Assembly (NCBI GenBank): GCA_964640665.1
Contig: CAZXHT010000002.1
Span: forward strand, 105,170 to 169,169
Direction: 5' to 3'
Length of the DNA: 64,000 nt
Source: an uncultured Myxococcales bacterium
Lineage (GTDB): Bacteria > Myxococcota > B64-G9
Under the pieces are notes generated by a model. The model was not told the origin of the DNA. It saw only the letters and a list, made by a program, of their open reading frames with translations, and did no database searches. This document shows positions 15,375-54,152 of this stretch, piece after piece (the stretch's first letter is position 1; each line of letters begins with the position of its first letter). The position numbers were made by a program, and so were the translations under genes.

Positions 15375-15507
15375 CTCTTGCCCCGGACGATGGTGGAATA
15401 ATCCATTACCCCAATAGTATCGAAGGCTGTCCAATCTTCACAAGGGAAACGAGAAACTGGTTCTTCCCGTTGTTGACCATCCTGTATATTGACTCTGTTC
15501 CGATCCC

Positions 15508-36580: not shown

Positions 36581-39448
36581 ATGAGAATAGCAACTTGTCT
36601 CGTATTATCGGCCTGTTTGATGGGCATTCTTGCCCAGCGAGCCGAGGCGCAGTCTTGTCCCAACCCCACAACGATCCACTGCGGCGACAGCATCTCGGGA
36701 AACAGCAGCAACGGCTCGAACCTGATTAACACCTACACCTGCTACGAATACAGCTACAACGGTCCCGAGATGGTCTACCTGCTCGACATCCCCGACGGGG
36801 CCGAGCTGCAGGTCGACCTGTATCCGGACGACGGCTGGCTAACATCATGGGACGCCATTTTGGTTATCATGCCCGAGCTTGACGGCGACTGCTACCCCTC
36901 GGTCTGGGCCGGCTGCTCCGACGAGGGGGGCTACGGCGGCTTCGAGGGCCTGGCCGGTACGCTGCCGGCAGGCCGCTACTATATTGTTGTCGACGGTTAC
37001 GACGGCGATTACGGCAGCTTCGATCTCAGCGTCTCCTGCACCGAGTGCACTGGTTGCGCGGACGGCGACGGCGACGGCTACTCGGGTTACAACGCCGGCA
37101 GTTGCCCCTGCGGCGACGACTGTAACGACAGCGACCCGCTCAGGAACCCGGCAGCCAAGGAGGTCTGCGGTAACCAGGTCGACGAGAACTGCGACGGAAC
37201 GGCCGTCAACCCTTGTCCCACCTGCTCTTCCGATCTGGCCGTCACTTGCGGCGAGTCGAGCACCGCCAGCACCGACAACGGCTCATCCAACCTGAACGAA
37301 TACTGCGGATCGGACTACACCGACTGGAGCGGCGATGAGTTCATCTTCGAGATTACGCCGGCGGCCGAGGGCACCGTCGACGTGGTAGTCTCCAACATGG
37401 GGGGCCAGCAGCTCGACGCCTTCGCCTTCACCGACTTCGGCGTGGCCGGCAACTGCAACAAGGACGCCTGCGTCGATCTCTCGGCGCAGACGAGCGGCAC
37501 GCAGCACTTGGCCTTTTACGCCCTGGCCGACGAGACCTACTACGTCGCGGTGGATGGGCGCGGCGGAGACCATGGATCCTTCAGCTATGCTTTCAGTTGC
37601 ATAAACGAGCAATGTGCCACGCCCGGTACTATTTCCTGCGGCCAGAGCGTTACAGGCGACACGAGCGGCGGTACGAACAACATCAGCGCCTATCCCGGCC
37701 TGCCCTGGAGCCTGCTGGGCTCGGATCTTAGCTATGCCATCAGCGTCGGATACGACGCCCGCATCACGGCGGCATTGCACGTCGACGACGGCGGCGGCAC
37801 GCCGCCCGACCTGGCACTGGTGGTCATAGCCGACGACGGCAACGGCGCCTGCCTGCCGGCAGAAGCTATCGCGGTCTCTGACTATTACCAGGATGAGGAC
37901 GGCAACCCGCCCGAGGTGCTGTCATTTTCGGTGCTGGCGAACACAACCTACTATCTGGTGGTCGAGGGACTGACCGAGAACGACTACGGCGGCTTCACGC
38001 TCAGCGCCGAGTGCGTCGTCGAGTGTCCCGACGGCATGACCGATTGTAGCGGCAACTGCGTCGATCTCGATAACGACACGCAAAATTGCGGCACTTGCGA
38101 CAACGCCTGTTCATACGCCAATGCCCAGGCGCTGTGTGTCGCAGGCACATGCAGCATGACCGGCTGCGATTCCGGATTCGGCGACTGCAATACCGACGAT
38201 GCCGACGGCTGCGAGACGGCCCTGGGCACCATCGACAACTGCTCGGCCTGCGGCGATGCCTGTGCCTTCGACCACGCCGCGGCAACCTGTGTCGCTTCGG
38301 TTTGCACGATGGGAGACTGCCAGACCGATTGGGGCGATTGCGCAAACGGAGACGCGGACGGCTGCGAAACGGCGCTTGACACCTCGGCGAACTGCGGCGC
38401 CTGCGGCACCACCTGCAGCGACCCGGATTTTTGTTACGCGGGCTCTTGTACATCCACCTGCCCTGGTAACCTGACTCACTGCGACGACGATTGCATCGAC
38501 ACCACCAGCGATCCGGCGAACTGCGGCGGCTGCGGCGTCACCTGCCAGGCGGCCAACGCCACGACCGCCTGCCATGCGAGCGCCTGCCTGATAGGGTCCT
38601 GTGAGGCCGGATTCGGCGACTGCGACGCATCGTATACCAACGGCTGCGAGACGACGCTGGGGACAATTTCAAATTGCGCCTCGTGCGCTGACGCCTGCGC
38701 CTTCGAGAATGCCGGTGCCACCTGTGACGCCGGCGTCTGCGCCATCGGAAGCTGCGATACGGGATACGGCGATTGCAACACGACGGCGGGGGACGGCTGT
38801 GAAAGCCCGCTCAATACCGACGCCCACTGTGGAAGCTGCACTACCAGTTGCGGCAACGACGAGAGCTGCGTCGGAGGCCAGTGCCAGCACTTCTGCGCCG
38901 ATGCCGACGAAGACGGTTACAAGGACATAAACTGTGGTGGAGACGACTGCAACGACGACAACGACAGCATCTATCCGGGAGCCGCGGAGATCTGCGAAGA
39001 TGGCATCGACCAGGATTGCGACGGTTCCGACCAGGAGTGCACCTGCGCGGACAACGATGGAGACGGTTATCGGGACGAGAATTGCGGCGGGGACGATTGC
39101 GACGACACCAACGGCTACATCAATCCCGGCGTGTCCGAGATCTGCGGCGACGATATCGACCAGGACTGCGACGGTGTCAAACAGGAATGCGACTGTCCCG
39201 ACACGGACGGCGACGGTCACCCGGCGACCTTCTGCGGCGGGGACGATTGCAACGACAACAACGCCTCGATCCATCCCGGCTCGCTGGACGTCTGCGGAGA
39301 CGGCATCGACCAGGATTGCGACGGCGCGGACCGTGCTTGTCCTTCGTCCAACTCGGGCTGCGGCTGCAGCAGCACGCGGGGAGACAGCCCGGGCCGCCTG
39401 GTTTTTCTGTTGCTCGGATTAGTTGCCCTTTTACGGCGCAGGGTGTAG
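36581..39448 (+). CDS. Secreted 955-aa Cys-rich repeat protein with PPC-like domains, Myxococcus-type cysteine repeats, MopE-like metal-binding repeats and a MYXO-CTERM sorting tail
   Basis: Signal peptide. Two pre-peptidase-C-terminal-like modules (YYIVVDGYDGDYGSFDLSVSC; YYVAVDGRGGDHGSFSYAFSC). About six ~45-aa repeats NCGxCGxxC...GxGDCNxxxxDGCET. Five DGDGY-x-CGGDDC(N/D)D-x-PGAxExC-DGIDQDCDG repeats. C-terminus GCGCSS...RLVFLLLGLVALLRRRV. Confidence 0.8.
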   Translation: MRIATCLVLSACLMGILAQRAEAQSCPNPTTIHCGDSISGNSSNGSNLINTYTCYEYSYNGPEMVYLLDIPDGAELQVDLYPDDGWLTSWDAILVIMPELDGDCYPSVWAGCSDEGGYGGFEGLAGTLPAGRYYIVVDGYDGDYGSFDLSVSCTECTGCADGDGDGYSGYNAGSCPCGDDCNDSDPLRNPAAKEVCGNQVDENCDGTAVNPCPTCSSDLAVTCGESSTASTDNGSSNLNEYCGSDYTDWSGDEFIFEITPAAEGTVDVVVSNMGGQQLDAFAFTDFGVAGNCNKDACVDLSAQTSGTQHLAFYALADETYYVAVDGRGGDHGSFSYAFSCINEQCATPGTISCGQSVTGDTSGGTNNISAYPGLPWSLLGSDLSYAISVGYDARITAALHVDDGGGTPPDLALVVIADDGNGACLPAEAIAVSDYYQDEDGNPPEVLSFSVLANTTYYLVVEGLTENDYGGFTLSAECVVECPDGMTDCSGNCVDLDNDTQNCGTCDNACSYANAQALCVAGTCSMTGCDSGFGDCNTDDADGCETALGTIDNCSACGDACAFDHAAATCVASVCTMGDCQTDWGDCANGDADGCETALDTSANCGACGTTCSDPDFCYAGSCTSTCPGNLTHCDDDCIDTTSDPANCGGCGVTCQAANATTACHASACLIGSCEAGFGDCDASYTNGCETTLGTISNCASCADACAFENAGATCDAGVCAIGSCDTGYGDCNTTAGDGCESPLNTDAHCGSCTTSCGNDESCVGGQCQHFCADADEDGYKDINCGGDDCNDDNDSIYPGAAEICEDGIDQDCDGSDQECTCADNDGDGYRDENCGGDDCDDTNGYINPGVSEICGDDIDQDCDGVKQECDCPDTDGDGHPATFCGGDDCNDNNASIHPGSLDVCGDGIDQDCDGADRACPSSNSGCGCSSTRGDSPGRLVFLLLGLVALLRRRV

Positions 39449-40347: not shown

Positions 40348-41862
40348 TCAGCGCCACGGTCCGACGTTGTACAACACCCAGACGTCGCCGCGACGCGAGG
40401 CGATCAGGGGAAAGTAGATCAACAATCCCGGTCGACCGTTCGGCCGCGGTCTGAATGGGATCACGTATCGGGTTCCGCAAAGATCAGCCGACCACAGAAC
40501 GTCGTCGCTGAAGCGCCCCTTGCCCCGACCGCGTCGGATCTCGATCCGATCGGGGTTGTCGCCTGTGCCGCCGCCTGCGCGACCGATGACCAAATCAAGC
40601 AGCCCGTCCCCGTCGAAGTCGGATCGAAAGTTAGGATACGGCCCGGTCAACTCCTGGTTGGAGGCGAAATCTATCCGCAGCTTGGACGGGATCACGAAGT
40701 CCGGTCTGTCAGTGAAAACGCCCTTTTGCGAGAAGTAGATCTCGAAATCGACGTTCAGCTTGCCGGCCAGCATCATTCCGATCAGGCTGCTGAGACCCAT
40801 CTCGACATGCGGGCGCACCAGGTCCAGACATCCGTCGGTATTCATGTCGCAAAGTGACACCGACGACCCCCACCCGTCGCGCCGGCTTTGGAAGTCGGCC
40901 CGCGGGGGATAGTCACAGGCGTCGTCGGCCAGGTAAACCCTAAGCTCGCTTTTCATGTTGCTGATGCCGCCCACGGTCTTGTTGATGACCAGGTCGGTCC
41001 GTCCGTCTCCGTTCAGGTCGCCGGCCCGGATTTGAACATGGGCCCCGCGCTTGATTCGTTCTTCACGCTCGAGCATGCTAAAGGAGCGCAACAGATCTGG
41101 CCCGGCGGGAAATGAGCCGTCGGCGCGCTGGCGATATACGGCCACGCTGTTACGCGAGAAGAACATCAGGTCGGGCCGACCGTCGGCGTTCTGGTCCTCC
41201 GCTTGCCAGCGCGGAACGGAGATCATGAACAATGCCCCGTAGTCCCTGGCCGAGCGAAAATCCTCGGCCGAGGTGTACAGCTCGGCGCGCGTGGGAACCC
41301 TGAGCGTGCGCTGCAACGACCAGGCGCTCTGCGCGCTTCGAACGTACAGAGCCAGCGGTCCGATCGGCACACTAGGCACGAGCAGACCGCGTCGGCCGTC
41401 GCCCAATTCGACCAGCAGCGATATGCGCGGCACGCTGTCCTCGTGCGGAATCGCGGCCATGGTCATCACCTTGACCTCACGCTTGGGACTTGACGCAAGT
41501 CCCCCGGTGGGTTGCCCGGCAAGCGACCAGACTCCGTCGGCGCGCAACAGAAGCACGTCGGCCAGGCCGTCGAAGTTGACGTCTCCGACGTCGAAGGCCA
41601 CGGTTCCGCGCGGCAAGGCGATTACCTGGGTCGGTCGGGTGGAGATCTTTCCGGCTGTAGCCGGATAGACACTGACACGCTTGGTGGTATGTGGCGGAAA
41701 GCCCTGTCGCCAGAAGACGAGAAAATCAACCAGCCCGTCACCGTTGACGTCCGCGGGCACCACGCTCGATACACGGCCCGGAAGCTTGAGCTCGAGCCTT
41801 TGCATAGGCCCCGCTGCGCCCAAGAAAAACGATAACAGCAGGCAGATGAGCGTCGCGCTCAT
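40348..41862 (-). CDS. FG-GAP/VCBS repeat beta-propeller protein, secreted
   Basis: Signal peptide; repeated Ca-binding-like DxNxDGxxD motifs (DVNGDGLVDFLV, DVNFDGLADVLL, DLNGDGRTDLVI, DMNTDGCLDLV, DFDGDGLLDLVI). Confidence 0.75.
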   Translation of the reverse strand: MSATLICLLLSFFLGAAGPMQRLELKLPGRVSSVVPADVNGDGLVDFLVFWRQGFPPHTTKRVSVYPATAGKISTRPTQVIALPRGTVAFDVGDVNFDGLADVLLLRADGVWSLAGQPTGGLASSPKREVKVMTMAAIPHEDSVPRISLLVELGDGRRGLLVPSVPIGPLALYVRSAQSAWSLQRTLRVPTRAELYTSAEDFRSARDYGALFMISVPRWQAEDQNADGRPDLMFFSRNSVAVYRQRADGSFPAGPDLLRSFSMLEREERIKRGAHVQIRAGDLNGDGRTDLVINKTVGGISNMKSELRVYLADDACDYPPRADFQSRRDGWGSSVSLCDMNTDGCLDLVRPHVEMGLSSLIGMMLAGKLNVDFEIYFSQKGVFTDRPDFVIPSKLRIDFASNQELTGPYPNFRSDFDGDGLLDLVIGRAGGGTGDNPDRIEIRRGRGKGRFSDDVLWSADLCGTRYVIPFRPRPNGRPGLLIYFPLIASRRGDVWVLYNVGPWR

Positions 41863-42677
41863 TTCGTATCCTGCTTACGAGGCGGCATGGGGGTGAACAG
41901 ACGGTGGCCGGTCAGATCGTTTACCCCTACGTAGATGTCGATCTCGTAGGCGTCCTTCAGGTTGCCGTAGGTCATGACCTCTTCGATGCTTCCCTTGTGG
42001 ACGATGGACCCCTGTTTCAGAAGGGCCACACTGTCGCAGAAGGCCGCCGCCAGGTTGAGATCGTGCATGGCGGATACCACGGTCAGACCGGTCCGGCGCT
42101 GGATATCACCTATCAAATCATAGAGTGTCACCTGGTGGCGGATATCCAAGTGGGCCGCCGGTTCGTCCAGCAGCAGGATGCGCGGTTGCTGCGCCAAGGC
42201 CTTGGCCACCACGACACGCTTGAACTCTCCCCCCGAAAGCTCGTGCATCCTCCGCCGGCGCAACTCGTAGACACCGGTCTGGTGCATGGCCTCCCTGGCC
42301 GCATCCCTGTCGACTGCCCGATCGAGCGACAGCGGTCCGCGGTGCGGGACGCGTCCGAGCAAGACAACTTCCTCGACGGTGAAGGGAAAGGCCAGCTCGA
42401 ACTTCTGGGGAACAACCGCCACCTGCCGGGCCAACTCACGCCGGTCCCAGGCTGAAAGGCTGCGTCCCATTACCTCGATCGATCCGCGGCGCGCCTTGAG
42501 CGCCCCGGAAATCAGCTGGATCAGGGTCGTCTTGCCGGACCCGTTGGGACCCAGCAGGCCGAGGAACCCCCCCCGGCGAACCCGCAGGTCAACGCCCCTG
42601 ATCACCGCTTCGGTCGTGTATCCGAACTCCACGGCCGTAAGCTCGATGGCCGCTTCTTGTTGTTTCTGCTGGCTCAC
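41859..42677 (-). CDS. ABC transporter ATP-binding protein, Fe3+-siderophore/haem/cobalamin importer family (FecE/HmuV/BtuD-like)
   Basis: Walker A GPNGSGKTTL, signature LSGGEFKRVVVAKAL, Walker B LLLDEPAAHLD, H-loop. Overall profile of type-II importer ATPases. 4-bp overlap with the downstream FG-GAP gene. Confidence 0.85.
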   Translation of the reverse strand: MSQQKQQEAAIELTAVEFGYTTEAVIRGVDLRVRRGGFLGLLGPNGSGKTTLIQLISGALKARRGSIEVMGRSLSAWDRRELARQVAVVPQKFELAFPFTVEEVVLLGRVPHRGPLSLDRAVDRDAAREAMHQTGVYELRRRRMHELSGGEFKRVVVAKALAQQPRILLLDEPAAHLDIRHQVTLYDLIGDIQRRTGLTVVSAMHDLNLAAAFCDSVALLKQGSIVHKGSIEEVMTYGNLKDAYEIDIYVGVNDLTGHRLFTPMPPRKQDTK

Positions 42678-42736
42678 GCGCTTCGATGGTTACACTTTCT
42701 TGCCCGCTCGCGTCAAGTCTGGTACCTTGTGAGCCA

Positions 42737-43609
42737 ATGAACGCCGTCTTCCTTTCAGGAGGGGGGGCCCGCGGCGCCTACGAGGTGGGCGTTCTCAGGG
42801 CTCTTCTAAAGGACGGCCCGCCTATCCAGCTCATCGGCGGCGCGTCGATCGGCGCCATCAACGCGGTCTTGGCGGCCACCGGCCAGATCGAGGAACTGGC
42901 CGAGGTGTGGCAGCGCATGTCCACACTGCAAGTCTACCGTCCGCGCCTTGATCTCTGGCGGCTCAGGAAGTGGACCTCGTTGTTCGACAATCGTGGCCTG
43001 TTCAAGCGCCTGCGCGACAACGTCCACTGGTCGAGGTTGCCGCATTCCGACGTGCAGGTGTTCATCTCGGCCACCAACATCAGCCTGCGCACCAACGAAA
43101 CCTTCGCCAACTCGGAGATAACCTATCGCCACGTGCTGGCCTCCTCGGCCATACCGATCCTCTTCGCGCCGGTACAGATCGGCAAGTACTGGTACATCGA
43201 CGGGGCCTTCTCGCTGTTGCGGCCGCTCAAGCCGCTTCTGAGGGCCGGCGCCAAGCGCATCTTCACGGTCTTCTTGAGTCCGCGCCGGCCGCGGCTCAGG
43301 CCGCCCACCAGCCTTTTCCAACTCGCCGATCGGACGCTGGAAGTGATACTTTCGTCCGCCATGGCCGCCGACAGGAAGCAGATCGAAAACACCAACCAGG
43401 AGATCGAGCGGCTAAAAGCTCTCGACGTGGATCCCAACGCCTTTAAGCACAAGCCCTACCGCCCGGTGCAGGTGATCGGCATTTACCCCTCGCGTGAGCT
43501 GGGCAACGTGGGCAGCTACCTGGTTGTCTCCGGCGACAAATCGCGCGAGCTGATCGAGCTCGGTATGACCGATTGCTACCGCGTGCTGAAACGCTACGAG
43601 TTGATCTGA
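42737..43609 (+). CDS. Patatin-like phospholipase
   Basis: GGGARGAYEVG oxyanion motif, GASIG nucleophile elbow (GxSxG) and DGAF catalytic Asp motif. Start at the Met immediately before the FLSGGG motif. Confidence 0.8.
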   Translation: MNAVFLSGGGARGAYEVGVLRALLKDGPPIQLIGGASIGAINAVLAATGQIEELAEVWQRMSTLQVYRPRLDLWRLRKWTSLFDNRGLFKRLRDNVHWSRLPHSDVQVFISATNISLRTNETFANSEITYRHVLASSAIPILFAPVQIGKYWYIDGAFSLLRPLKPLLRAGAKRIFTVFLSPRRPRLRPPTSLFQLADRTLEVILSSAMAADRKQIENTNQEIERLKALDVDPNAFKHKPYRPVQVIGIYPSRELGNVGSYLVVSGDKSRELIELGMTDCYRVLKRYELI

Positions 43610-43964
43610 GCAATGTGCTCGCCCCCGGCGCGTTCCCGGCCCTTTGTGGAAGTAATTCAAACTATGTGCTTCGACCATCCACCTGAAGTACACAGCGCGG
43701 CTCCGCACCTGGGGGCACGGCAAAAACGCCGACACAACCAAAACAATCTGTGCACGGGCGAGCCCTCTACTGAAAATCTTTGCGGTACGGATCTAACAGG
43801 CCCTGTGACGATTTTTGCCGCCGGGACCTTCAAGGGTCATTGACAACCCTGGCTGTTTTCGTGACAAGACCGTAACATTCTGATACTGTTCAATTTGTCA
43901 AGCAATGTTGTCCCGATGATGTACAATGATCTAGAGTGGTTGCACTCGTCACGGGAGCAGAGAT

Positions 43965-44954
43965 ATGGCGACTGCAGAACAGATCAAGGCACTTATCAGG
44001 AGCCATGCAGAGGGAGACGATGAACGTTTCTTCTCCATCGCCATGCAGTTGGCTGCTCACGCTGCCCGAAAGGGTCAAGGGCGTTTCGCCAAGGAACTCA
44101 GGGCTCTTATTGACAACGCCAAGAACAAGATGAAGCAGCATGGGATCGAAGCGAGCCCAGTCAAGCCTGTACCGTTGGTCCAACCAAGAGGTGAGCTTTC
44201 CGGACTACTGAGCGTTTCCTATCCGAAGACAAGATTTGCGGAGATGGTATTGGGGGGAACCCTCCGTGGTCGTCTGCGTAGGGTCTTGAATGAACAGAGG
44301 CAGTTCGCAAAACTGCAGGAATATGGTCTGTCACCATGTCGAAAACTCTTGCTGGTAGGTCACCCGGGAACAGGAAAGACCATGACGGCAAGTGTATTGG
44401 CAGGCGAGATGCACTTTCCGTTGTTCACGATTCTCCTTGATGGTCTGATAACCAAGTATATGGGAGAGACAGCCGCCAAACTGAGGCTGATATTCGATGC
44501 TATCGGTCAGACCCGAGCCGTTTATCTCTTCGACGAATTCGATGCACTTGGTAGCCGTCGAGAGGCACAGAATGACGTCGGAGAGATTCGCAGAGTACTG
44601 AACTCGTTCCTACAGTTTCTTGAACAGGACGAGTCAGCCAGCCTCGTTATTTGCGCGACCAACCATCCGGACCTGCTGGACCGGGCCCTGTTCCGGCGCT
44701 TTGATGACGTGATTGAATACGACTTGCCCTCAGAAGATCAGGCCAAAGAAGCCATGAAAGCAAGATTGAGTCTCCTTGGCACTTCTTCTGTTGATTGGCA
44801 AAAGGCGGTTCAGGCGTCGGGTGGACTGAGTTACGCGGAGATCGTGCGTGGTTGTGAACAGGCGGCGAAAGACGTCATTCTCGCTGGCTCGCTGGAGTTG
44901 GATACAGATCGTCTTGTGACCGCACTAGAAGAAAGACACACAAATCGAGGATAA
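43965..44954 (+). CDS. ietA: IetA-like classical AAA ATPase (partner of an S8 protease)
   Basis: Walker A LLLVGHPGTGKTMTASVLAGE, Walker B VYLFDEFDALG, SRH ICATNHPDLLDRALFRRFDDVIEYDLP. GGGAG RBS; lower GC than flanking host genes. Confidence 0.75.
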   Translation: MATAEQIKALIRSHAEGDDERFFSIAMQLAAHAARKGQGRFAKELRALIDNAKNKMKQHGIEASPVKPVPLVQPRGELSGLLSVSYPKTRFAEMVLGGTLRGRLRRVLNEQRQFAKLQEYGLSPCRKLLLVGHPGTGKTMTASVLAGEMHFPLFTILLDGLITKYMGETAAKLRLIFDAIGQTRAVYLFDEFDALGSRREAQNDVGEIRRVLNSFLQFLEQDESASLVICATNHPDLLDRALFRRFDDVIEYDLPSEDQAKEAMKARLSLLGTSSVDWQKAVQASGGLSYAEIVRGCEQAAKDVILAGSLELDTDRLVTALEERHTNRG

Positions 44955-44984
44955 AGCAACGCTCGACAGTGGGGGCCCAGCAAC

Positions 44985-47156
44985 ATGGCGGGAACTGAAT
45001 ATCCTCATCTATTCATCCACGGCTTCATGAAATCAGAGAAGTACACCTCCCCAAGAGGGGGAGGTGGTAAATTTCGACTTCCCTCCCGGCATCGCCGGCG
45101 CCATGGACGCGAACTTATGGCGCAGTTTGTAGCTGCTGCTCGCGAAATCGATAAACGTCGGACAATGTTCCCAATACAAGTAGAAGGTGCTGATCGTGGT
45201 CTTTATATCGCATTCCAGAGCGATCCTGGGTTCGAGATTCCGCTTGAAAAGCTTGAGGATCGCCGGAAGAAAATAGAACTGGTTCTTTCTCAGAGAGTAG
45301 AAAACCAACAGTTTGCCACGGTGTTTGTTCCCGACAAGGCGCGCACGCATTTCCTGAAGAGGTTTGAGCAGTACATCGAGGAGAAAACCAAGAAAGGAAA
45401 TCCTCGCCACAAAGAATTGGTAGAAAGCATCAGAACTTTGCGGGCTGCTACGCTGCGTTCTTTATGGACCGACGACCAAAACCTCTTTCCAGATCCAGAC
45501 CATATCTTCAGGTGGGAAGTATGGCTCCGTAATACAGACGGGGAAGAGCTTGCACGCTTCAAGAGTTTCGCTACTTCCTTTGATCTGACAGTTAGTGAGA
45601 AGTACATCGGCCTCTTCCCGGACCGAACCGTCGTTCTCGCTATTGGCACAGCAAGGCAGTTGAGTGCAACACTGGACATGCTGGGTGATATCGCGGAACT
45701 CCGGAAGGCAAAGGACTCACCGTCTGAATTCCTGGAGATGACAGCACATGAGCGTGCGGATTGGTTGCAAGACCTATCCGAAAGAATCAGACCCGCAATC
45801 GGTAATCCGCCGTCAGTGTGTGTGCTGGATACCGGTGTGAATAGAGGTCATCCACTCCTTGCTAGTTCGCTTGCTGTTGGAGACTTACATGTGTACAACC
45901 CGGCATGGGGTGTACATGATGATAATGGTCACGGAACCGAGATGGCAGGATTGGCTCTTCTCGGAGATTTGATGGAGCCATTTAAGTCATCGCAGCCTGT
46001 GGTGCTTACTCATATCCTTGAATCCGTGAAGATTCTGCCGCCTGTTGGAAGCAATCCCCGAGAGTTATACGGAGTGATTACCGAGGAGTCAGCAAGCCGG
46101 GTCGAGGTGTCTGCACCTGACAGGCGTCGAGTTTTCTCTATGGCGATTACCGACGACAGCACTCCCGACAGTGGAAGACCAACAGCTTGGTCGGCCACCA
46201 TCGATGCTTTGGCTGCTGGCGTTGATGCGCCTGGCGAAGAGGTACGAAGACTTTTTGCGCTTTGCGCCGGGAATCGGACCGGTCCAGTAAGCGCCGATTA
46301 CCTGTCGGAGAGTGATACGGACGAGGTTCATGACCCAGGACAGGCATGGAACGCCCTCACGGTAGGTTCATCCACGGAGAAGTGCGTAATTGACAGTGGG
46401 GATCCTACTCTGCTCGGGTGGACGCCCCTTGCTGGGCCAGGTGCTCTATCACCGGTAACCACCACGTCGGTGACATGGGAAAATCAATGGCCCCTCAAGC
46501 CAGACGTTGTCACAGAGGGCGGCAATATGGCTATCGGACCAGGAGAAAACGAGGCATCTTGTTTGGACTGCCTGTCCTTGCTTACGACAGACCGTGATGT
46601 GACTGGTCGATCCCTTGTGCCAATTTGTGGAACAAGTGCTTCGGTTGCTTTGGTAGCTAGGCTGTCAGCGCTAATTGCTGCGGAGTATTCCGATGCATGG
46701 CCAGAGACGATCAGGGCGTTGGTTGTCAATTCTGCCCGCTGGACTGAACCAATGCTGGCCGAGATTGAGGCGGCTCGTAGTCGCAAGTCAGATCTTAAAA
46801 ATATCTTACGAAGATATGGTCACGGCGTCCCTGGCTTGCAACGGGCGATAGCTTCTTCAAGAAGTGCGCTGACCTTGGTTGCCCAGGAACACATCACTCC
46901 CTTTGAAAATGGAAAAACCAAGGACATACAATTCCATTCCCTGCCATGGCCAACATCAGTCTTGCAAGGCTTGGGCAACACCTTGGTCAGCATGAGAGTG
47001 ACGCTGTCATATTTTATTGAGCCCAAAAGTTGGCGTAGATATTTACACGCCCGTGAAGAATCAGGTGTCGGTGCCGGTTATGGTCTGACCGAGGGCAAGG
47101 AAGTATTTGGAATCGCCTTTCAGTGTAGCATTTCACACAGCTGCAACCGCCCGTAA
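44985..47156 (+). CDS. ietS: IetS-like cytoplasmic subtilisin-family (S8) serine peptidase with a ~280-aa N-terminal domain of unknown function
   Basis: Catalytic triad contexts VCVLDTGVNRGHP (Asp), HDDNGHGTEMAGLA (His), CGTSASVALVARLSA (Ser). No signal peptide. 30 bp downstream of the AAA gene on the same strand. Confidence 0.75.
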   Translation: MAGTEYPHLFIHGFMKSEKYTSPRGGGGKFRLPSRHRRRHGRELMAQFVAAAREIDKRRTMFPIQVEGADRGLYIAFQSDPGFEIPLEKLEDRRKKIELVLSQRVENQQFATVFVPDKARTHFLKRFEQYIEEKTKKGNPRHKELVESIRTLRAATLRSLWTDDQNLFPDPDHIFRWEVWLRNTDGEELARFKSFATSFDLTVSEKYIGLFPDRTVVLAIGTARQLSATLDMLGDIAELRKAKDSPSEFLEMTAHERADWLQDLSERIRPAIGNPPSVCVLDTGVNRGHPLLASSLAVGDLHVYNPAWGVHDDNGHGTEMAGLALLGDLMEPFKSSQPVVLTHILESVKILPPVGSNPRELYGVITEESASRVEVSAPDRRRVFSMAITDDSTPDSGRPTAWSATIDALAAGVDAPGEEVRRLFALCAGNRTGPVSADYLSESDTDEVHDPGQAWNALTVGSSTEKCVIDSGDPTLLGWTPLAGPGALSPVTTTSVTWENQWPLKPDVVTEGGNMAIGPGENEASCLDCLSLLTTDRDVTGRSLVPICGTSASVALVARLSALIAAEYSDAWPETIRALVVNSARWTEPMLAEIEAARSRKSDLKNILRRYGHGVPGLQRAIASSRSALTLVAQEHITPFENGKTKDIQFHSLPWPTSVLQGLGNTLVSMRVTLSYFIEPKSWRRYLHAREESGVGAGYGLTEGKEVFGIAFQCSISHSCNRP

Positions 47157-47215
47157 CTTGCGCTCAGACAAGTCCTCAAAGACGGAGACAGGAGAGGGCG
47201 CGCCAGGAATGGGCC

Positions 47216-48253
47216 TCAGACGAAGGCCGTCCGGTGGCGGCGGCGCAGCAGGAACAGAAAGAAGGGGCCGCCTAAAAAGGCGGTGATTACTCCCACCGGC
47301 GGCTCGGTGGACAGGGGAATGAACAGCAACCTGGCGCCCAGGTCGGCCAACACCAAAAACGCGCCTCCGGCCAGCGCCGATGCCGGCAGCAACAAGCGAT
47401 GGTCCGGCCCCAGGATCAGGCGCATCAGGTGCGGCACGATCAGGCCGACGAAACCCACCATGCCTGAGACGGATACGGCCAGTCCCACCAGCAGCGAGGC
47501 TGCGAAGAAGATGATCGCCTTCGTTTTCTCGACATCCACACCGAGGTGCGTGGCGCCCTGCTCACCGAGCGCTAATGCGTTCATGCGGCTGGCCATCAGT
47601 GTCAGCACGGCGATGCCGGCGAACGTACCCGCGGCTACCACCAGGATGGTCGAGTACTCGCAGTATCCGATGTTGCCCATCAGCCAGACGAGGATCTCAC
47701 GGGTCTTGGTTGCCGTGACCGCCGTCTTGAGAAACATGATCACCGCAGAGGCGAAGGCATTGAAAACGACTCCGACTAAGAGAACCGTGATCGTGTCCAC
47801 TCTCCCGGCCACCCGGCCGATGCGATAGACGAGGACCATAGCCGCCAGCGCCCCCAGAAAGGCCGCCGGGCCCTGCAGGGCGATGCCGATACCGGCGCTG
47901 CCGACAAGGGCTAAAGCCAGGGTTCCGCCCAGGGCCGCCCCGCCGGAGACTCCCATGATGAAGGGATCGGCCAGGGGATTTCGCAGCAGGGCCTGGAAAG
48001 CCACGCCCACGGCCGCCAGGGCCGCTCCCACCAGGGCGGCCAACAGCGCGCGCGGTAGGCGTGCCAAGAGAATGGTCGCCGCCTGCGGATTGCTGTCCGG
48101 GTCGAGCGGCCAAAGGGAAGCCAGGTCGGTCCCGCCCGGGCCGAGCAGCGCACTGGCGATGACACACAGCACAGCAATGACAAAGAGTAGTCCGATCACC
48201 TTGACGAAACGAGCCGGGGTCAACAGCTTGGTCTTGACGGGTTTGGCGGACAT
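47216..48253 (-). CDS. FecCD/BtuC-family ABC permease of a Fe3+-siderophore/cobalamin importer
   Basis: About 9-10 TM helices with Gly/Ala-rich helices typical of the FecCD family (GVSGGAALGGTLALALVG...). Start at the Met preceding the first TM helix; the 121-codon upstream extension in the ORF track is rejected. Confidence 0.8.
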   Translation of the reverse strand: MSAKPVKTKLLTPARFVKVIGLLFVIAVLCVIASALLGPGGTDLASLWPLDPDSNPQAATILLARLPRALLAALVGAALAAVGVAFQALLRNPLADPFIMGVSGGAALGGTLALALVGSAGIGIALQGPAAFLGALAAMVLVYRIGRVAGRVDTITVLLVGVVFNAFASAVIMFLKTAVTATKTREILVWLMGNIGYCEYSTILVVAAGTFAGIAVLTLMASRMNALALGEQGATHLGVDVEKTKAIIFFAASLLVGLAVSVSGMVGFVGLIVPHLMRLILGPDHRLLLPASALAGGAFLVLADLGARLLFIPLSTEPPVGVITAFLGGPFFLFLLRRRHRTAFV

Positions 48254-48274: not shown

Positions 48275-50113
48275 TTGCCAGACCTGTCCAGGCCGAGTAA
48301 AGTGTACGATGTTATGTGTGGGATCGAGCATCATGATGGCTGTCCCGCTCTCGAAGTGGCGCTGGCCCGCTGGCCCGAGTTGGCTCCGACTTACCGGGCG
48401 CTTGCAGACCGAAGGTTCGACGGTGTGTTCGAGAAATACATGGCCGATGCCTCGCCCGAGCAGGTGGCGACTTTCTTGCGCGAGGCCGGCGATCTGGATC
48501 TCGAGCGAGTCGAATTGCACCGGGAGGCACTGCGCCGAGGAGAACGAGAGCAAATCGGTCTCGACCAGGTAGACAGGGTGGAGCTTGCAACTATCGAAGA
48601 CCAGGCGGCCCGTCAAGAACAGGACGGCGCGGAAGGACTCGATTCGCTGCGGGAGGGGCGTTGGGCGTCCGTGGCTTTCGCCGGCGGGGCGGGAACCCGC
48701 TTCGCGGCGGGACTCGACGGGTTGAAGAGTGCCTTGGCCCGGCCCAATGAGGTACTGTGCCAGCGCGGCTTTGATTCCGCAGAGCCCAAGGGCGCCTTTC
48801 CTATTTCACCAGTGGGAGGTCTGAGCTTCTACGAGATCATTCTCGCCCAGGCGCTTTCGGTCGGTGTCTCAAGCGGGCGATTGCCTTGGGTGCTGTTTTT
48901 GACCAGCCAGTTGACCCACGAACGCACCGTGGCGTTTCTGAAGAGCAGGCAGTTGTTTGGATTGCCGGCCGCAAGCTGGATAGCTTTTCAGCAGGCCCAG
49001 GAGCCCCGTTTGGACATGCAGGGCTGCCCGATTGCAGATCAGGGCGGCCACATCAATCAAACCGGCGACGGGCACGGTGGGGTGTACCGGGCGCTGCTCG
49101 ACAACCGGCGGGGGGAACGACCACTGCTGGACTACTTGCGCAACGCGGGTGTCGAACAGTTGGTCATGCACAACGTGGACAATCCGGCGGCACGCCCGTT
49201 TTTCCTGCCGCGCTTGGGGTTCCACTTGCGCGAGGGTGCGCTTTTCACATTGAGTGCCGTGCGCAAGACGGATCCAAACGAAAAGGTCGGCGTGCTGATG
49301 ATGCTCAAGGCCAGCGGGCGCCTCGAGGTGATCGAGTACAACGTACTCGATCCGCGGGTGGCCGATGCCAGGGATGCGGCCAACGGCAGGCTATTGCATG
49401 AAGCGGGCAACGCCAACACCAACCTGATCGGTATCGAGGCGATTAGTGATGATTTCGAACCGACGCTCTATACGGGTAAAAAGATCGTCTCACGTATCGG
49501 GCCGGTGACCGCGAGTTCTCTCGAGAAGCTCAACCAGCATATAACCCGCACGCTGGACCCGGCCCGGATCAGGGCCTATGAGATCAGGCGGGACGAACTG
49601 TTCTTCCCGACCAAGAACATAACCGGCACCGACTCGGTCGAGTCATCGACACGCATGTTGTCGGCGCTGGGTGAACGACGGTTGAGCGCCTGCGGCGCCA
49701 GTGTGGCCAAGGGGGCCGTAATTGATCTGCACCCGGCTTGCGGTGCGACCAAAGAACAGCTCGAGTGTATTGGCATGTGCCCGGACTGGACCATCGGGCG
49801 CGGGGCGCGGCTTTACCTGTGCGCCGGGCCGGAGCCGATCAGCGACGGTCCCGTCAGGATCGAAGACGACAGCTCTTTAATACTTTACACAGCCAGGCCC
49901 TATGGAAAACTGTCCCTGGACGCCGAGCGCCGCCTGACGATCGACACGGCCGGGATGAGTCGCCTGCGAATCGGGCGCGGGGTGACGCTGGGCAAGGGTG
50001 TCAGGTTGGTAATGCGCATCGGCGCGGGGGGAAAGCTGAACATACCTGCCGGGCGAACAGTTACGGCAGATATAGAGGTCGAGGTGGGAAGCGGTGAAGA
50101 AAAAACTCTTTAG
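48275..50113 (+). CDS. UDPGP-family (UTP-sugar-1-phosphate uridylyltransferase-like) protein with a C-terminal extension
   Basis: ASVAFAGGAGTRF (the L-x2-GG-x-GTR nucleotide-binding loop of UDPGP enzymes), GDGHGGVY, and MHNVDNPAARP. Exact start uncertain (48275 or the internal Met at 48314). Confidence 0.6.
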   Translation: MPDLSRPSKVYDVMCGIEHHDGCPALEVALARWPELAPTYRALADRRFDGVFEKYMADASPEQVATFLREAGDLDLERVELHREALRRGEREQIGLDQVDRVELATIEDQAARQEQDGAEGLDSLREGRWASVAFAGGAGTRFAAGLDGLKSALARPNEVLCQRGFDSAEPKGAFPISPVGGLSFYEIILAQALSVGVSSGRLPWVLFLTSQLTHERTVAFLKSRQLFGLPAASWIAFQQAQEPRLDMQGCPIADQGGHINQTGDGHGGVYRALLDNRRGERPLLDYLRNAGVEQLVMHNVDNPAARPFFLPRLGFHLREGALFTLSAVRKTDPNEKVGVLMMLKASGRLEVIEYNVLDPRVADARDAANGRLLHEAGNANTNLIGIEAISDDFEPTLYTGKKIVSRIGPVTASSLEKLNQHITRTLDPARIRAYEIRRDELFFPTKNITGTDSVESSTRMLSALGERRLSACGASVAKGAVIDLHPACGATKEQLECIGMCPDWTIGRGARLYLCAGPEPISDGPVRIEDDSSLILYTARPYGKLSLDAERRLTIDTAGMSRLRIGRGVTLGKGVRLVMRIGAGGKLNIPAGRTVTADIEVEVGSGEEKTL

Positions 50114-51539
50114 TTTACTATTCCTATGCCTGTTGATTTCTACGGGTGGTTGTCGGAAAGAAGCCGACCGTTCCAACACCATCTGCGGTATGCATTTCAA
50201 GCAAGCTGACGGCGCGCGCCTGGTTAATGGCGATCCTGCGCCCCGCGTGCAGGTGATCGGCTTTCCGGCATCGTTCATGCTCGACAACATCGAGTCCGAG
50301 CGGGCCGTCTCCTGCTCGTTTGACATGTTCGGCCCGCAGGTCGCGCCCAAGCGAATCTTCACCCGTTACGGGCGTGCGGACGAGAAGAAGATAAAGGTTA
50401 CTGCGACCGCCGCTAACGAAGTACACATTGATTACCCGCTGGCCTCCAGGTCCTATGGAATAGTTTCGATCGAAAAGCGTTTTTCGGTTCCCGATGACTC
50501 CAGACATCTATTGCACAATGGTCTTGCCCTAGACATCGAGGGAGGCGTTTTCCTGCGCTTGAAAGGCCCCGCCGCGCTGCTGCGCTCGCTCGGTCCCACG
50601 ACGGTGGTGCATGTGAGCAACCGCTCGGAGCATACTCTTCCCGTGGACATCGTCCTCGATAATGTTTCCAGTCGTCTTTCGCTTTACGGTGTTTCTGGAA
50701 AAGGCGGACCGGGCAAGATAACGATCAAACCCGAAGACCGGTTGCGCGTTCGCTTGTCCGGGACGCTGATGGCCGGCGAGCAGATCTGGATCAAGGTTGC
50801 CCCGCGCCAGCTGCGTTACCCCTACAGCTTCGTCTTCGGCGGCGACGTCAAGAAGAACATTCCCACTTTTCTCGCCCTGCTCGACAAGGTGAGCAAGAGA
50901 GCCGACCCGTTGTTCATGTTGTCCGTTGGCGACTATACGCGCAACAGCCTGCCGGCCGAACTAGACGATTTTTTCGAGGCCAGCCGGCAGATCGATTATC
51001 CGGTTTACTACGTCAAGGGCAACCACGAGACCAGGTGCCAGGGAGATCTGCATTTTCGAAGACTCTTCGGTTCTGAGCGCTTTTTCTTGGTGGTGGACCA
51101 ATTGCTGTTCGTGGTACTGGATTCGACACTGCGCGATGGTTCCGGGTACCGACTGGACGACCGGCAACTTGCCTGGCTGGACGAAGTCCTGGCAGCGCAG
51201 CAGGCTGTACCCTGGAAGTTCATTCTGTTGCACGTCCCGCCGTATCCATTGCACGGCGATACTTTGCACCCCGAACACAAGTCCAACCTGGCCGAATGTG
51301 ACGCCGTGGCTCTCAGGGCGATTGCCGGTAAACATGACGTATCCTACGTGCTGAGTGGGCACGCCCACCTCTACGCCCGTCGTGAAGAAAAAGGCACCGT
51401 TTATTTGGTAAGCGGCGGCGGAGGGGCCAAGCTATACACCTACAACCCCGTAGCCGGATTCGACATCGACACCCGGCCGCATCTGATGCTTTTTAATGTC
51501 TACAAAGACGGGATAGAGGAAGAGGCGCTTCGGTTGTAG
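50094..51539 (+). CDS. Lipoprotein with a C-terminal calcineurin-like metallophosphoesterase domain
   Basis: Lipoprotein signal MKKKLFSLLFLCLLISTGGC; metallophosphatase motifs GDYTRN, GNHE, GHAHLY. Confidence 0.7.
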   Translation: MKKKLFSLLFLCLLISTGGCRKEADRSNTICGMHFKQADGARLVNGDPAPRVQVIGFPASFMLDNIESERAVSCSFDMFGPQVAPKRIFTRYGRADEKKIKVTATAANEVHIDYPLASRSYGIVSIEKRFSVPDDSRHLLHNGLALDIEGGVFLRLKGPAALLRSLGPTTVVHVSNRSEHTLPVDIVLDNVSSRLSLYGVSGKGGPGKITIKPEDRLRVRLSGTLMAGEQIWIKVAPRQLRYPYSFVFGGDVKKNIPTFLALLDKVSKRADPLFMLSVGDYTRNSLPAELDDFFEASRQIDYPVYYVKGNHETRCQGDLHFRRLFGSERFFLVVDQLLFVVLDSTLRDGSGYRLDDRQLAWLDEVLAAQQAVPWKFILLHVPPYPLHGDTLHPEHKSNLAECDAVALRAIAGKHDVSYVLSGHAHLYARREEKGTVYLVSGGGGAKLYTYNPVAGFDIDTRPHLMLFNVYKDGIEEEALRL

Positions 51540-51550
51540 TTAGGCGATTT

Positions 51551-52810
51551 TTATAAAAGATGAGCCGGCAACCGCTCGGGGGGATCCGTGCCGGGTTCCT
51601 TTTCGGCCGCGGGGATCGGCAACAGGCTTGGTTCCAGTAACCAGGACCAGACCGGGCGCTTGGCGATGATTCCCGCACGACAGGAGATGTCGCCGCTTTC
51701 GGGATCGTTGGCCAGCAGCAGGCCGTGTGTGCAGTCATGTCTGGCCATCGCCCTGGCAAGAGGACGGGTATCTCGATCCGTGTCCGGATCGCACTCGACC
51801 TGAACGAAAACCCTCTTACCCGATCGATCGGCTGCCGCGAGGCCCGAGAGCTTCATCGCTTTCCAGGCCAACACGCGAGCCCCAAGCCTGCGTAATTCTG
51901 TATAAACGGCCGTCTCCAAAAGGGCGCGCTCGGCGACACCCCGACCGGAAAGCGCGGTCGCCAGCCCGCAGTCGGCCGCGAAGGTTCTTCTGGCCGCCCC
52001 GTGGCGATCTCGATCTGCATCCTCCAGCCGCGAGATGATGTGAACCAGGCCACTGCGCTCGAGATGAGACAAGAAAGCCCGGGCCTGATCCAGAGACCTG
52101 GTTAAAATTCCCTTCATGTGAGATAGACTGAACGACTCGGCAGTCATGGAAACAAGATAGACCGCTATGGCGGTTAATTTGTCTGTTCCTCTGACTTCGC
52201 TCTTTGTGATCACGTCATGAAACAGGATTTCGTTAAAGAGACGGACTAGGCTTTTGGTTTGATCCTGGCTGTTCCAGCTTGTCGGCAAGCCACCGGCCCG
52301 CAGAAAGGCAGGAAGCACTTCGCGTGCTGTGACATTATTGACCGATTTATCGGTGAATTCATCAATCCAGTCTCGCAAGCAGAGCGGGAAAAAGGGTATC
52401 ACGGCAATATCTGAAGCCTTTGCTTTCATCTCGCTTGGCTGGCCGGAGACGGAGGCGATCACCCCGGCGCCGGTTTTGCGTCTGAAATCGCGCGCCCAGA
52501 TCAGCCAATCGCTCACTCTCTCGGCCTCGTCGAGAAGTATCCAGGTCTGCTGTCCCTTGTGCGAGTCGGTTGCCGCCCTCGAAAACAGCTCGAGCGTTTC
52601 CTTGCGGGGTCTTGGCGCCAACCTGGGGTCCTCGAGATCGATGCTGACCACCCCGGTTTCTTCCCGGCGCCTGGAAAGAATCCGCGCAATCTCACCGAGT
52701 GCCGTCGACTTGCCGGATCCACGCACACCTCGCAGGATGACGATGCGGTTCGAATCCAGCCCCTGAATGGCCAGATCGATCTCTTTTTTTCGCCACTGTC
52801 TGATTGTCAT
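51551..52810 (-). CDS. AAA_14/DUF4143-family ATPase (archaeal-type ATP-binding protein)
   Basis: Walker A ILRGVRGSGKST, Walker B WILLDEAERV, and a C-terminal DUF4143-like region. Confidence 0.75.
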   Translation of the reverse strand: MTIRQWRKKEIDLAIQGLDSNRIVILRGVRGSGKSTALGEIARILSRRREETGVVSIDLEDPRLAPRPRKETLELFSRAATDSHKGQQTWILLDEAERVSDWLIWARDFRRKTGAGVIASVSGQPSEMKAKASDIAVIPFFPLCLRDWIDEFTDKSVNNVTAREVLPAFLRAGGLPTSWNSQDQTKSLVRLFNEILFHDVITKSEVRGTDKLTAIAVYLVSMTAESFSLSHMKGILTRSLDQARAFLSHLERSGLVHIISRLEDADRDRHGAARRTFAADCGLATALSGRGVAERALLETAVYTELRRLGARVLAWKAMKLSGLAAADRSGKRVFVQVECDPDTDRDTRPLARAMARHDCTHGLLLANDPESGDISCRAGIIAKRPVWSWLLEPSLLPIPAAEKEPGTDPPERLPAHLL

Positions 52811-52941
52811 TATTCTCCGTTATATCGGTTAATAATAAACTACGATCTCAATGGGCGTCAAGCGCATTATGGCTATTGAATTTTGAATGAAAGGTATTAC
52901 AATGATGATGTTGATGAATGGACAAGCAGGAGGAAGCTGGA

Positions 52942-53151
52942 ATGCCGATGTACGAGTACGAGTGTTCAAAGTGCCAGCACCAGTTCGAACTGCTCAGGTC
53001 GCTTTCCGAGCGGGACGATCCCTGTGAGTGTCCCGCTTGCCGTAAAAAGGTGAAGATGAAGAGACTCTCTTCGCTCTTCAGTTCGGCGGGGTCGGGAGAT
53101 GTCGGAAGTATGTACAACTCCTGCTCCAGCACGAGTTCTGGAGGCGGGTGA
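52942..53151 (+). CDS. FmdB-family zinc-ribbon protein
   Basis: MPMYEYECSKCQHQFE...CPACRK is the canonical FmdB CxxC...CxxC pattern, with a Ser/Gly-rich tail. Confidence 0.6.
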   Translation: MPMYEYECSKCQHQFELLRSLSERDDPCECPACRKKVKMKRLSSLFSSAGSGDVGSMYNSCSSTSSGGG

Positions 53152-53188
53152 GCCCTCTGACCAAACCGCCCCGGTCGGGGTGGTAATA

Positions 53189-54097
53189 TTATCTGTCAGC
53201 AGTTGGTTCCGGGTGCAGTATTCTGGAAAGGCGCGCCAGGCCCTCGACGATGCGCGGGCCGGGCCTGAAAAAGAGAGACGAGTTTAAAGCGTGTACGCGC
53301 CCGTTCTTCACGGCCGGCACGACCTTCCAGCGACTCCATTCACGACGCACCTCGGCCGTGGTCGTCTCGGCGTCATTCCCCCCGGACGAGGCGTCGATTA
53401 TTACATCGGGTGCAAGTTTGATAAGCGCCTCGATAGGCACGCTGGGGTAGCGCACCCGCGATTCTCCCAGCAGGTTCCGTCCGCCGGCGATGGTCAGCAG
53501 TGTGTCTGCGAAACTGCCTCGGCCGGCGACTACCAGCGGCCGGTGTCCGTAGACCATGATCACCCGTGGCCGCGGCCGGCCCGCGACGCGCGTCCTGATG
53601 CCGGTGATACGGGCCCGCATCTCGGCGACCAGTTTCCGGGCTCCCTCCTCCTTTTCGAAAACGACGCCGAGCCGTTCAATTGCCCCGTAGATGTTGTCAA
53701 GAGTGTATGACGGCAAGACCAGCACCGGCACTCCCAGTCTGGTGATGACGTCGAGCCGGTCGCGACCGCCCGGGTTGGGCACGCCGATTACGAGCTGCGG
53801 ATCGAGGGCCATGATTCCCTCGACGCTGGGATCGACGAAACCGCCCACATGGGGAAGCTTCTTAACCTGCTCGGGGTAGTCGTCGAACCTGGTGACTCCG
53901 ACCAAGCGTTCGCCGGCACCGATGGCGAAAACGATTTCAGTCAGGTTGGGGGCCAGCGACACGACCCGCTCGGGAACCCCGTGCGGCCGCGGTTTGCCAA
54001 GGTAGGCGGATCCTGCGGGCTGGGCCGCGGCTGCGGCAGCCAGAAACAGCTGAACGATTGTCAGGATCAGGGAATTTTTCAAGATTGCAGATGTCAT
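53189..54097 (-). CDS. Periplasmic substrate-binding protein of a Fe3+-siderophore/cobalamin ABC importer (BtuF/FhuD-like fold)
   Basis: Signal peptide MTSAILKNSLILTIVQLFLAAAAAAQP; mature region RVVSLAPNLTEIVFAIGAGERLVGV ... DPQLVIG ... VDPS... is typical of the PF01497 periplasmic binding fold. Confidence 0.75.
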   Translation of the reverse strand: MTSAILKNSLILTIVQLFLAAAAAAQPAGSAYLGKPRPHGVPERVVSLAPNLTEIVFAIGAGERLVGVTRFDDYPEQVKKLPHVGGFVDPSVEGIMALDPQLVIGVPNPGGRDRLDVITRLGVPVLVLPSYTLDNIYGAIERLGVVFEKEEGARKLVAEMRARITGIRTRVAGRPRPRVIMVYGHRPLVVAGRGSFADTLLTIAGGRNLLGESRVRYPSVPIEALIKLAPDVIIDASSGGNDAETTTAEVRREWSRWKVVPAVKNGRVHALNSSLFFRPGPRIVEGLARLSRILHPEPTADR

Positions 54098-54152
54098 TTT
54101 CGTCCCCAAGCCTCTCAGATACGGCGGCCGGTCGTAAAGTGATATTTGCATG

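Follow-up and report, generated by a model that had tools for sequence, protein, structure and literature searches.

A divergent ietAS island with an internally deleted protease gene in an uncultured Myxococcales bacterium

The DNA analysed here, hereafter the window, is a stretch of 64,000 nucleotides from an uncultured Myxococcales bacterium (contig CAZXHT010000002.1). It carries an island with two genes of the IetA/IetS family, namely an AAA ATPase gene (ietA) and an S8 subtilase gene (ietS), which a first-pass annotation of the sequence had proposed as a candidate addiction or antiphage module. We find that the island was acquired horizontally, at a site that is empty in the two closest relatives, and that its protease gene has undergone an internal deletion that shifts the reading frame. 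Because ietS is left without ~110 residues of its C-terminal domain (C-domain) and ends in 43 out-of-frame codons, it is doubtful that the pair can still serve in addiction or anti-phage defence. The locus is probably a decaying remnant in which the toxin was inactivated first while the antitoxin gene stayed intact.

The island encodes a distant IetA/IetS pair

Only two open reading frames (ORFs) are found within the island, encoding products of 329 and 723 amino acids (aa) in the same direction with a gap of 30 bp between them. Their coordinates agree with those of the first-pass annotation, and the ATPase and subtilase motifs quoted there are all present and invariant in the family alignments (Table 1).

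The first product, IetA, is a classical AAA+ ATPase. It matches the PADLOC IetA model PDLC02196 over residues 2–324 (E = 1.3e-71, 240 bits) as well as Pfam AAA (E = 2e-30). Its Walker A motif (GHPGTGKT, G132–T139), Walker B motif (LFDEFD, 189–193), sensor 1 (ATNH, T232–N233), Arg fingers (R244–R245) and pore loop of the classical AAA type (TKYMGE, T163–E168) are all invariant in an alignment of six sequences. With its canonical aromatic pore loop, IetA probably threads or remodels a polypeptide, for which IetS is the obvious candidate. Its identity to the ATPase that accompanies the nearest homolog of IetS is 74%, and it is 56% identical over 325 aa (E = 2e-126) to the ATPase encoded on an Agrobacterium fabrum plasmid (locus L085).

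The second product, IetS, carries the catalytic residues of a subtilase in their usual contexts: D282 in VLDTGV (codon at 45828–45830), H316 in HGTEMAG (45930–45932), N430 (46272–46274) and S551 in GTSAS (46635–46637). All four occupy invariant columns of a 42-sequence family alignment. The PADLOC IetS model PDLC02198 is matched with E = 6e-32 and 108 bits, at model positions 87–655 of 795 only. Read by eye, the translation has no hydrophobic signal-like segment at its N-terminus, as the first-pass annotation had also observed, and IetS is predicted to be cytoplasmic. The same annotation had found nothing recognisable in the first ~280 aa of the protease; this region proves to be a conserved family domain, PF27160 (Y4kK_N). 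We found 6,337 homologs of IetS, the best of them 56% identical, and nearly all are indexed with both PF27160 and PF00082. In models from AlphaFold2 (AF2), the N-terminal ~272 aa take a mixed alpha/beta fold with confidence. The top Foldseek match is ProN-Tk-SP, although the ferredoxin-like fold behind this prodomain-like match is very common, and the match serves as a lead only. A search of the PDB by sequence returned no relatives of IetS.

Based on the PADLOC models, the identity to the Agrobacterium proteins and the recurrence of the same pairing in five loci, the window pair is assigned by sequence to the IetA/IetS family, as the first-pass annotation had suggested. In each of the five homologous loci examined (L001, L082, L083, L084 and L085), an AAA gene of 326–329 aa lies directly 5' of the S8 gene. 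These loci comprise a metagenome contig, Polyangium fumosum, Magnetococcus marinus MC-1, a contig with BrxC/BrxD-like and RES-domain neighbours, and the A. fabrum plasmid. Residues 7–685 of IetS align with the S8 protease of L085 at 40% identity over 710 aa (E = 1e-152), and the L085 pair itself scores 239 bits (IetA) and 86 bits (IetS) on the same PADLOC models. The NCBIfam models for these proteins are narrow equivalogs, and the window pair misses both by a wide margin (IteA NF042959, 197 bits against a cut-off of 510; IteS NF042956, 49.7 bits against 900). Since the scores fall so far under these cut-offs, the pair appears to represent a different, distant subfamily of the same family.

A frameshifting internal deletion has bisected the C-domain of IetS

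The S8 protease had been taken as complete in the first-pass annotation. Its catalytic triad is indeed present, but the gene is truncated. Pairwise and multiple alignments of IetS all stop at '...RVTLSYFIEP' (aa 680), whereas full-length relatives continue for ~135 residues past this point. The 120 best-scoring of the 6,337 homologs measure 747–875 aa, and most of them 810–850 aa. Conserved motifs that have been lost from the window protein include NPGRRGW, HGLRFD, KGSxHxD, YPVSGWWK, RYALxVSIE and VDIxTPVA. Full-length members of the family reach positions 773–777 of 795 and 848 of 855 in the PADLOC IetS models; because these models run through the C-domain in such members, the C-domain is a conserved part of the family. 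The full-length architecture of Y4kK_N, S8 and C-terminal domain is not that of the window protein.

What remains of the 3' end was located with a C-terminal family profile of 201 positions, which was run against the six-frame translation of the whole window. The profile matches the ietS ORF at positions 2–65 (E = 4e-24) and a piece in the +1 frame at positions 178–199 (E = 6e-4), leaving a gap at positions 66–177 that corresponds to ~112 positions, or ~340 bp. The same six-frame search found no copy of the missing part elsewhere in the window. In agreement, tblastn with the C-termini of six homologs placed the last ~22 residues of the family at 47020–47085 in the +1 frame (E = 0.001–0.12). 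The ietS gene is therefore a frameshifting internal-deletion derivative of a protein of ~810–840 aa. The junction was set against the two sites of L001 that correspond to it. Its sequence is compatible with slippage, the probable mechanism, between two copies of the 8-bp sequence GAGCCCAA in different frames, the putative repeat sites being '...ATT GAG CCC AA' of FIEPN and '...GAG AGC CCA AA' of IESPK.

Structure prediction indicates how much of the fold is affected. The AF2 model for P0001, a protein of 814 aa and the closest full-length homolog, has a predicted local distance difference test score (pLDDT) of 85.5 and a predicted template modelling score of 0.76. It is divided into an alpha/beta N-terminal part (1 to ~270), the S8 domain (~275–620) and a compact, beta-rich C-domain (626–814) with strands at 626–635, 645–650, 665–674, 696–700, 747–755, 764–769 and 783–792 and a helix at 707–720. 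Only the first three of these strands are kept in the window IetS; the deletion takes roughly four of the seven strands together with the long helix, and adds 43 nonsense residues. In the AF2 model of the window protein, the N-terminal and catalytic parts stay confident. The pLDDT of residues 621–680, however, drops to 56–73, compared with 77–95 in the full-length homolog, and that of the out-of-frame tail is 25–49 over most of its length.

The island is a recent insertion without mobility genes

To place the island in its chromosomal context, relatives were found by scanning species-representative genomes with the adjacent permease. The nearest are L010 and L002, whose permeases are 96% and 92% identical to that of the window. 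By blastn, both relatives are colinear with the window on either side of the island (~87–90% identity for L010, 78–89% for L002), and both alignments break precisely at the 43609/43610 and 47215/47216 boundaries. Between the stop codons of the patatin-like phospholipase and permease genes lie 11–12 bp in L010 and L002, and 3,606 bp in the window. Genes for IetA and IetS are missing from all 80 related loci. The island sits between the convergent stop codons of the patatin and permease genes, and no gene is interrupted.

The composition of the island is equally distinct. The first-pass annotation had described it as a low-GC island, and among all 3.6-kb segments of the window (mean GC 0.598, sd 0.019) the minimum, 0.526, is found in the one that starts at 43601, at the island's left end. 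GC at third codon positions (GC3) is 0.545 for ietA and 0.50 for ietS, compared with 0.77–0.83 for five flanking genes. The flanks measure ~60–64% GC, somewhat under the ~65% given earlier, while the AT-rich non-coding stretch reported at 43840–43960 is borne out, with 45.5% GC. Because its composition is unlike that of the host and the two closest relatives have an exact empty site, ietAS was acquired horizontally. Its arrival was recent, since the composition is still foreign and has not drifted toward that of the host.

The ORFs of the island include no integrase or transposase gene, a repeat search revealed neither terminal direct or inverted repeats nor a target-site duplication, and the whole window contains no tRNA genes, so that an insertion at a tRNA was not encountered. 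When the non-coding ends were compared with other ietAS loci, no flank homology was found and the coding regions alone aligned. The island is a cargo-only insertion without mobility functions of its own. Its AT-rich left flank contains TTGACA/TTGTCA-like motifs, and GGGAG is found 9 nt 5' of the ietA ATG; a sigma-70 consensus scan called zero sites in 43610–43964. From its AT-richness, this flank may be the promoter/operator region of ietA.

Table 1. Coordinates of the island, its genes and their parts, and the two adjoining native genes (positions in the window).
Feature	Position	Strand	Basis and remarks
Acquired island, 3,606 bp	43610..47215	.	blastn breaks against L010 and L002; lowest GC of the window
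Left flank of island, non-coding, upstream of ietA	43610..43964	+	Sequence reading, GC
ietA, intact classical AAA+ ATPase of 329 aa	43965..44954	+	PADLOC IetA, Pfam AAA
ietS ORF as encoded, S8 subtilase of 723 aa	44985..47156	+	PADLOC IetS; frameshifted after codon 680
IetS N-terminal domain (Y4kK_N), aa 1 to ~272	44985..45800	+	PF27160 precomputed in homologs, alignments, AF2
IetS S8 catalytic domain, aa 275–614	45807..46826	+	
Retained part of C-terminal beta-sandwich, ~3 beta-strands, aa 625–680	46857..47024	+	Family profile, AF2
Deletion junction ATTGAGCCCAAAAG	47018..47030	+	Alignment break, profile gap 66–177, comparison with L001
Out-of-frame tail, 43 codons and stop	47025..47156	+	No family homology; low pLDDT
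Remnant of original ietS 3' end SPKVGVDIYTPVKNQVSVPVMV, +1 frame, stop at 47086–47088	47020..47088	+	tblastn, profile
Right flank of island, non-coding, featureless	47089..47215	.	Unmatched in relatives and in other ietAS loci
Patatin-like phospholipase gene, native, outside island	42686..43609	+	Pfam Patatin, E = 1e-26; stop abuts island
FecCD/BtuC-type ABC permease gene, native	47216..48250	-	Pfam FecCD, E = 2e-81; stop abuts island

A probably decaying module, and alternative readings

In characterised systems the toxin is IetS and its antitoxin is IetA; defence depends on the activity of the protease, no ietA mutant could be obtained, and the anti-phage mechanism was stated to be unknown as of April 2026 (PMC13069673). 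Our own literature search likewise found no published mechanism or structure of IetAS. The system of Bacillus cereus works through abortive infection, with expression of the SPbeta gene yosG as a trigger (bioRxiv 10.1101/2022.08.27.505566). In Mycoplasma, deletion of the toxin or of the whole pair is viable, while deletion of the antitoxin alone is lethal (PMC8562856). A scheme that accommodates these observations would have the ATP-dependent action of IetA hold IetS inactive. A phage trigger, or the loss of IetA or of the module, would then free IetS, and proteolysis in the cytoplasm by the freed protease would arrest or kill the cell.

Within such a scheme, the ~340-bp frameshifting deletion, by leaving a bisected C-domain and a nonsense tail, would yield a misfolded or unstable toxin. 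That the toxin should be hit first as a module decays is expected because Mycoplasma tolerates the loss of the toxin and dies from the loss of the antitoxin alone (PMC8562856), and toxin-antitoxin logic predicts the same for a copy on a chromosome that has ceased to be needed. The explanation that we consider probable is thus that the locus is a decaying remnant, with a toxin gene that was inactivated first and would no longer function, next to an antitoxin gene that is intact.

Several observations weigh against this explanation. The retained 680 aa of IetS deviate at 8 of 148 highly conserved columns, which is within the family range of 0–16, and relaxed constraint was accordingly not detected in this part. 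It contains no internal stops and keeps its catalytic residues. This leaves two options: a very recent deletion, or a truncated IetS on which selection still acts. In addition, the exact IetS protein is not on record in any public assembly searched, and the deletion rests on one assembly. Some subtilases with C-terminal beta-domains, such as Tk-SP, are active without them.

In the foremost alternative, the module is still functional: IetS would need no more than its N-terminal and catalytic domains for toxicity and regulation, the C-domain would be dispensable or merely stabilising, and the pair would act as an abortive-infection or addiction system. The intact catalytic residues and family-conserved columns, without any further decay, are what such a module would show, as are an intact ietA with all motifs conserved and the confident AF2 prediction of the N-terminal and S8 parts; the foreign composition, moreover, makes the island very recent. 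In contrast, conservation of the C-domain extends over the IetS subfamilies, the PADLOC models include it, and no homolog among the 120 best of 6,337 is shorter than 747 aa. Furthermore, the cut falls in mid-domain, leaving orphan strands, over which AF2 confidence collapses, followed by 43 nonsense residues. We therefore regard a working module as unlikely, if worth keeping in view.

A related reading, which we hold to be quite unlikely, is that the deletion is itself functional. The C-domain might be regulatory or dock IetA, in which case the truncated protease would have been rewired. Alternatively, with the toxin crippled, an intact and expressed IetA might act as an orphan 'anti-addiction' antitoxin that shields the host from incoming IetAS plasmids or phages.

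The deletion could also be an artefact of assembly, of consensus calling or of a minority variant in a metagenome-assembled genome (MAG), with the real ietS being intact. Since every one of the relatives is a MAG, the window is probably from a MAG too; no other record of the exact IetS protein exists, and the remainder of ietS looks healthy. However, a clean loss of ~340 bp at a plausible microhomology, with the downstream remnant kept, has the look of a real deletion. Assemblers rarely make such deletions where the sequence is not repetitive, and long internal repeats were absent from the results of the repeat search. An artefact is therefore very unlikely.

The adjacency of the patatin gene raises a further possibility, namely that patatin, IetA and IetS arrived as one three-gene unit, for example as a defence system with a lipase effector. 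The patatin is weakly similar to the phospholipase effectors of cyclic-oligonucleotide-based antiphage signalling systems (CBASS; PADLOC E = 1e-10; NCBIfam 40 bits). Yet its gene has the GC3 of the host (0.825), the empty site falls between patatin and permease, and the gene is present at the same position, in the permease/ATPase interval, in 12 related genomes that lack ietAS (L002, L004–L006 and L008–L015; protein identity 64–97%). Since its composition is that of the host and its position is shared with these 12 relatives, the patatin gene is native and was not co-acquired with the island. The first-pass annotation had included it, and the splitting of an ABC importer around it, in the horizontal acquisition; the acquisition stands for ietAS by composition and empty site, whereas the patatin-split importer is ancestral to the clade and predates the island. 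The comparative data and host composition thus lead us to reject the three-gene unit, which is extremely improbable. As a candidate in its own right, CBASS or another patatin-effector defence system was also rejected, given a score of 40 bits against the NF041079 cut-off of 200 and no cyclase gene among the neighbours.

Finally, a housekeeping ATPase of the CbbX/FtsH/PAN type lying by chance next to a secreted nutritional subtilisin has a negligible probability and was rejected on the IetA models and the conserved pairing: the generic matches to PAN, FtsH and CDC48 (E = 1e-18 to 1e-26) and to Peptidase_S8 are what it would predict, but the IetA-specific model is far stronger (E = 1e-71), no CbbX/FtsH-like protein is the best match, the pairing is conserved in all five loci, the protease lacks a signal peptide, neither gene occurs in the closest relatives and GC is not uniform across the region.

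Genomic neighbourhood

The genes around the island are ordinary chromosomal genes and do not form a defence island. The patatin gene lies between the FecCD permease and ABC ATPase genes, on the opposite strand (41859–43609, 47216–48250). Its start codon is 8 bp from that of the ATPase gene, which leaves practically no intergenic space for a promoter. The ABC ATPase gene is in turn overlapped by an FG-GAP gene (40348–41862). Relatives of the Anaeromyxobacter type have the two ABC genes within ~250 bp of each other, without a patatin gene between them.

Other related loci carry extra DNA in the same region. In L015, ~4.9 kb (10868–15804) in the permease/patatin interval contain three ORFs without Pfam or PADLOC matches and an OmpR-type response regulator. 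The patatin/ATPase interval is enlarged by ~4.3 kb in L011 (11928–16241) and by ~1.8 kb in L004 (4498–6276). Pfam and PADLOC recognised no defence genes in the L015 and L011 inserts, only the one response regulator. The site of insertion was also considered as a possible defence hotspot; from the inserts of L015 and L011 it is a variable spot and not a demonstrated hotspot.

The importer genes are spread over ~12 kb. The gene for the periplasmic binding protein (Peripla_BP_2, 53189–54151, minus strand) is ~5 kb from the permease gene, and three genes lie in the interval between them (within 48275–54151), namely UDPGP-like, metallophosphoesterase and PDC-S01-like genes. An Rfam scan of the window, which included the cobalamin riboswitch as a candidate for the importer, gave no matches. 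The last of the three interval genes encodes a 419-aa AAA_14/DUF4143 ATPase (51551–52810, minus strand) that matches PDC-S01, a PADLOC family of candidate single-gene defence systems, over nearly its full length (E = 2e-41). Its GC of 0.58 is somewhat under that of its neighbours, and the colinear blastn alignment with L010 spans its position.

Farther upstream, a gene at 36581–39448 (plus strand) encodes a 955-aa protein with four putative metal-binding motifs of the MopE type. Its internal repeats appear as blastn self-hits in the comparison with L010 and L002. It is adjoined by a gene for a FadL/TodX-like outer-membrane protein.

Significance of the locus

Taken alone, the locus is of little weight, being an ordinary and damaged copy of a known two-gene system. 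It is nevertheless a clean case of a small defence or toxin-antitoxin cargo that arrived and then probably decayed, with insertion boundaries of base-pair precision, sister genomes in which the site is empty, and a toxin gene that was the first to be hit. It also bears on annotation practice: profile matches of the PADLOC type would score the locus as a complete IetAS despite the missing conserved protease domain, and a check of profile coverage would expose such truncated calls. The AF2 model of the family may aid work on the IetAS mechanism, as it presents a prodomain-like N-terminal region, an S8 domain and a C-domain like those of KP-43 and Tk-SP, partnered with an AAA unfoldase that has a pore loop. 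If the deletion should prove functional, the window protein would be a natural domain-deletion variant that could help to dissect this mechanism.

Comparison with known systems

The closest comparison is with the Agrobacterium pair of L085, located on a Ti-type plasmid of A. fabrum (NZ_CP043965). The order is the same, with an AAA ATPase of ~328 aa followed by the S8 protease, and the L085 IetS shares the N-terminal and S8 architecture of the window protein. The two differ in location, since the Agrobacterium pair is carried on a plasmid and the window pair is chromosomal in Myxococcota. They also differ in length: the Agrobacterium IetS runs to residue 836, whereas the window IetS lacks the C-terminal ~135 aa. 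We take the L085 pair to be the ietAS of pTiC58, from the PADLOC models and the background on that system; the plasmid annotation itself gives only generic names. An anti-phage role for ietAS was reportedly described by Gao and colleagues in 2020. The PADLOC models place the window pair and the anti-phage ietAS in one two-gene family, for which the expected mode of action is abortive infection dependent on the active site of the protease. The window protease differs in being truncated.

As cited in later accounts, the founding system of the family is that of Agrobacterium pTiC58 (Yamamoto et al. 2009, J Bacteriol 191:4656; in PMC8562856, PMC13069673), and an anti-phage homolog occurs in Escherichia coli ECOR52 (bioRxiv 10.1101/2022.08.21.504612).

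SgiAT (S026/S025) of Salmonella Genomic Island 1 is a copy of IetAS on a chromosomal island that acts as a toxin-antitoxin pair, and its proteins are 50% and 36% identical to IetA and IetS (PMC5006074). At 56% and 40%, the window pair is as close or closer to the Agrobacterium pair than SgiAT is to IetAS. Unlike SgiAT, which is intact and stabilises a mobilisable island, the window pair has a damaged toxin gene on an island without mobility genes. The chromosomal TA132/133 of Mycoplasma, with an AAA antitoxin and an S8 toxin, is a similar module from a distant lineage, likened here by description. The ietHAS system (Liu-DS4, PMC13069673) adds an SNF2 helicase to the IetA and IetS core, whereas the window island has no third gene.

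Among proteases of other kinds, KP-43 (1wmd), Tk-SP (3afg) and PCSK9 are subtilases with a C-terminal beta-domain and a prodomain, at only 12–22% sequence identity to IetS. These enzymes are secreted and autoprocessed, in contrast to IetS, which lacks a signal peptide and forms a pair with an AAA ATPase. The system in the window is one that is already known, represented by a divergent copy from Myxococcota that is 56% identical to the nearest known IetS.

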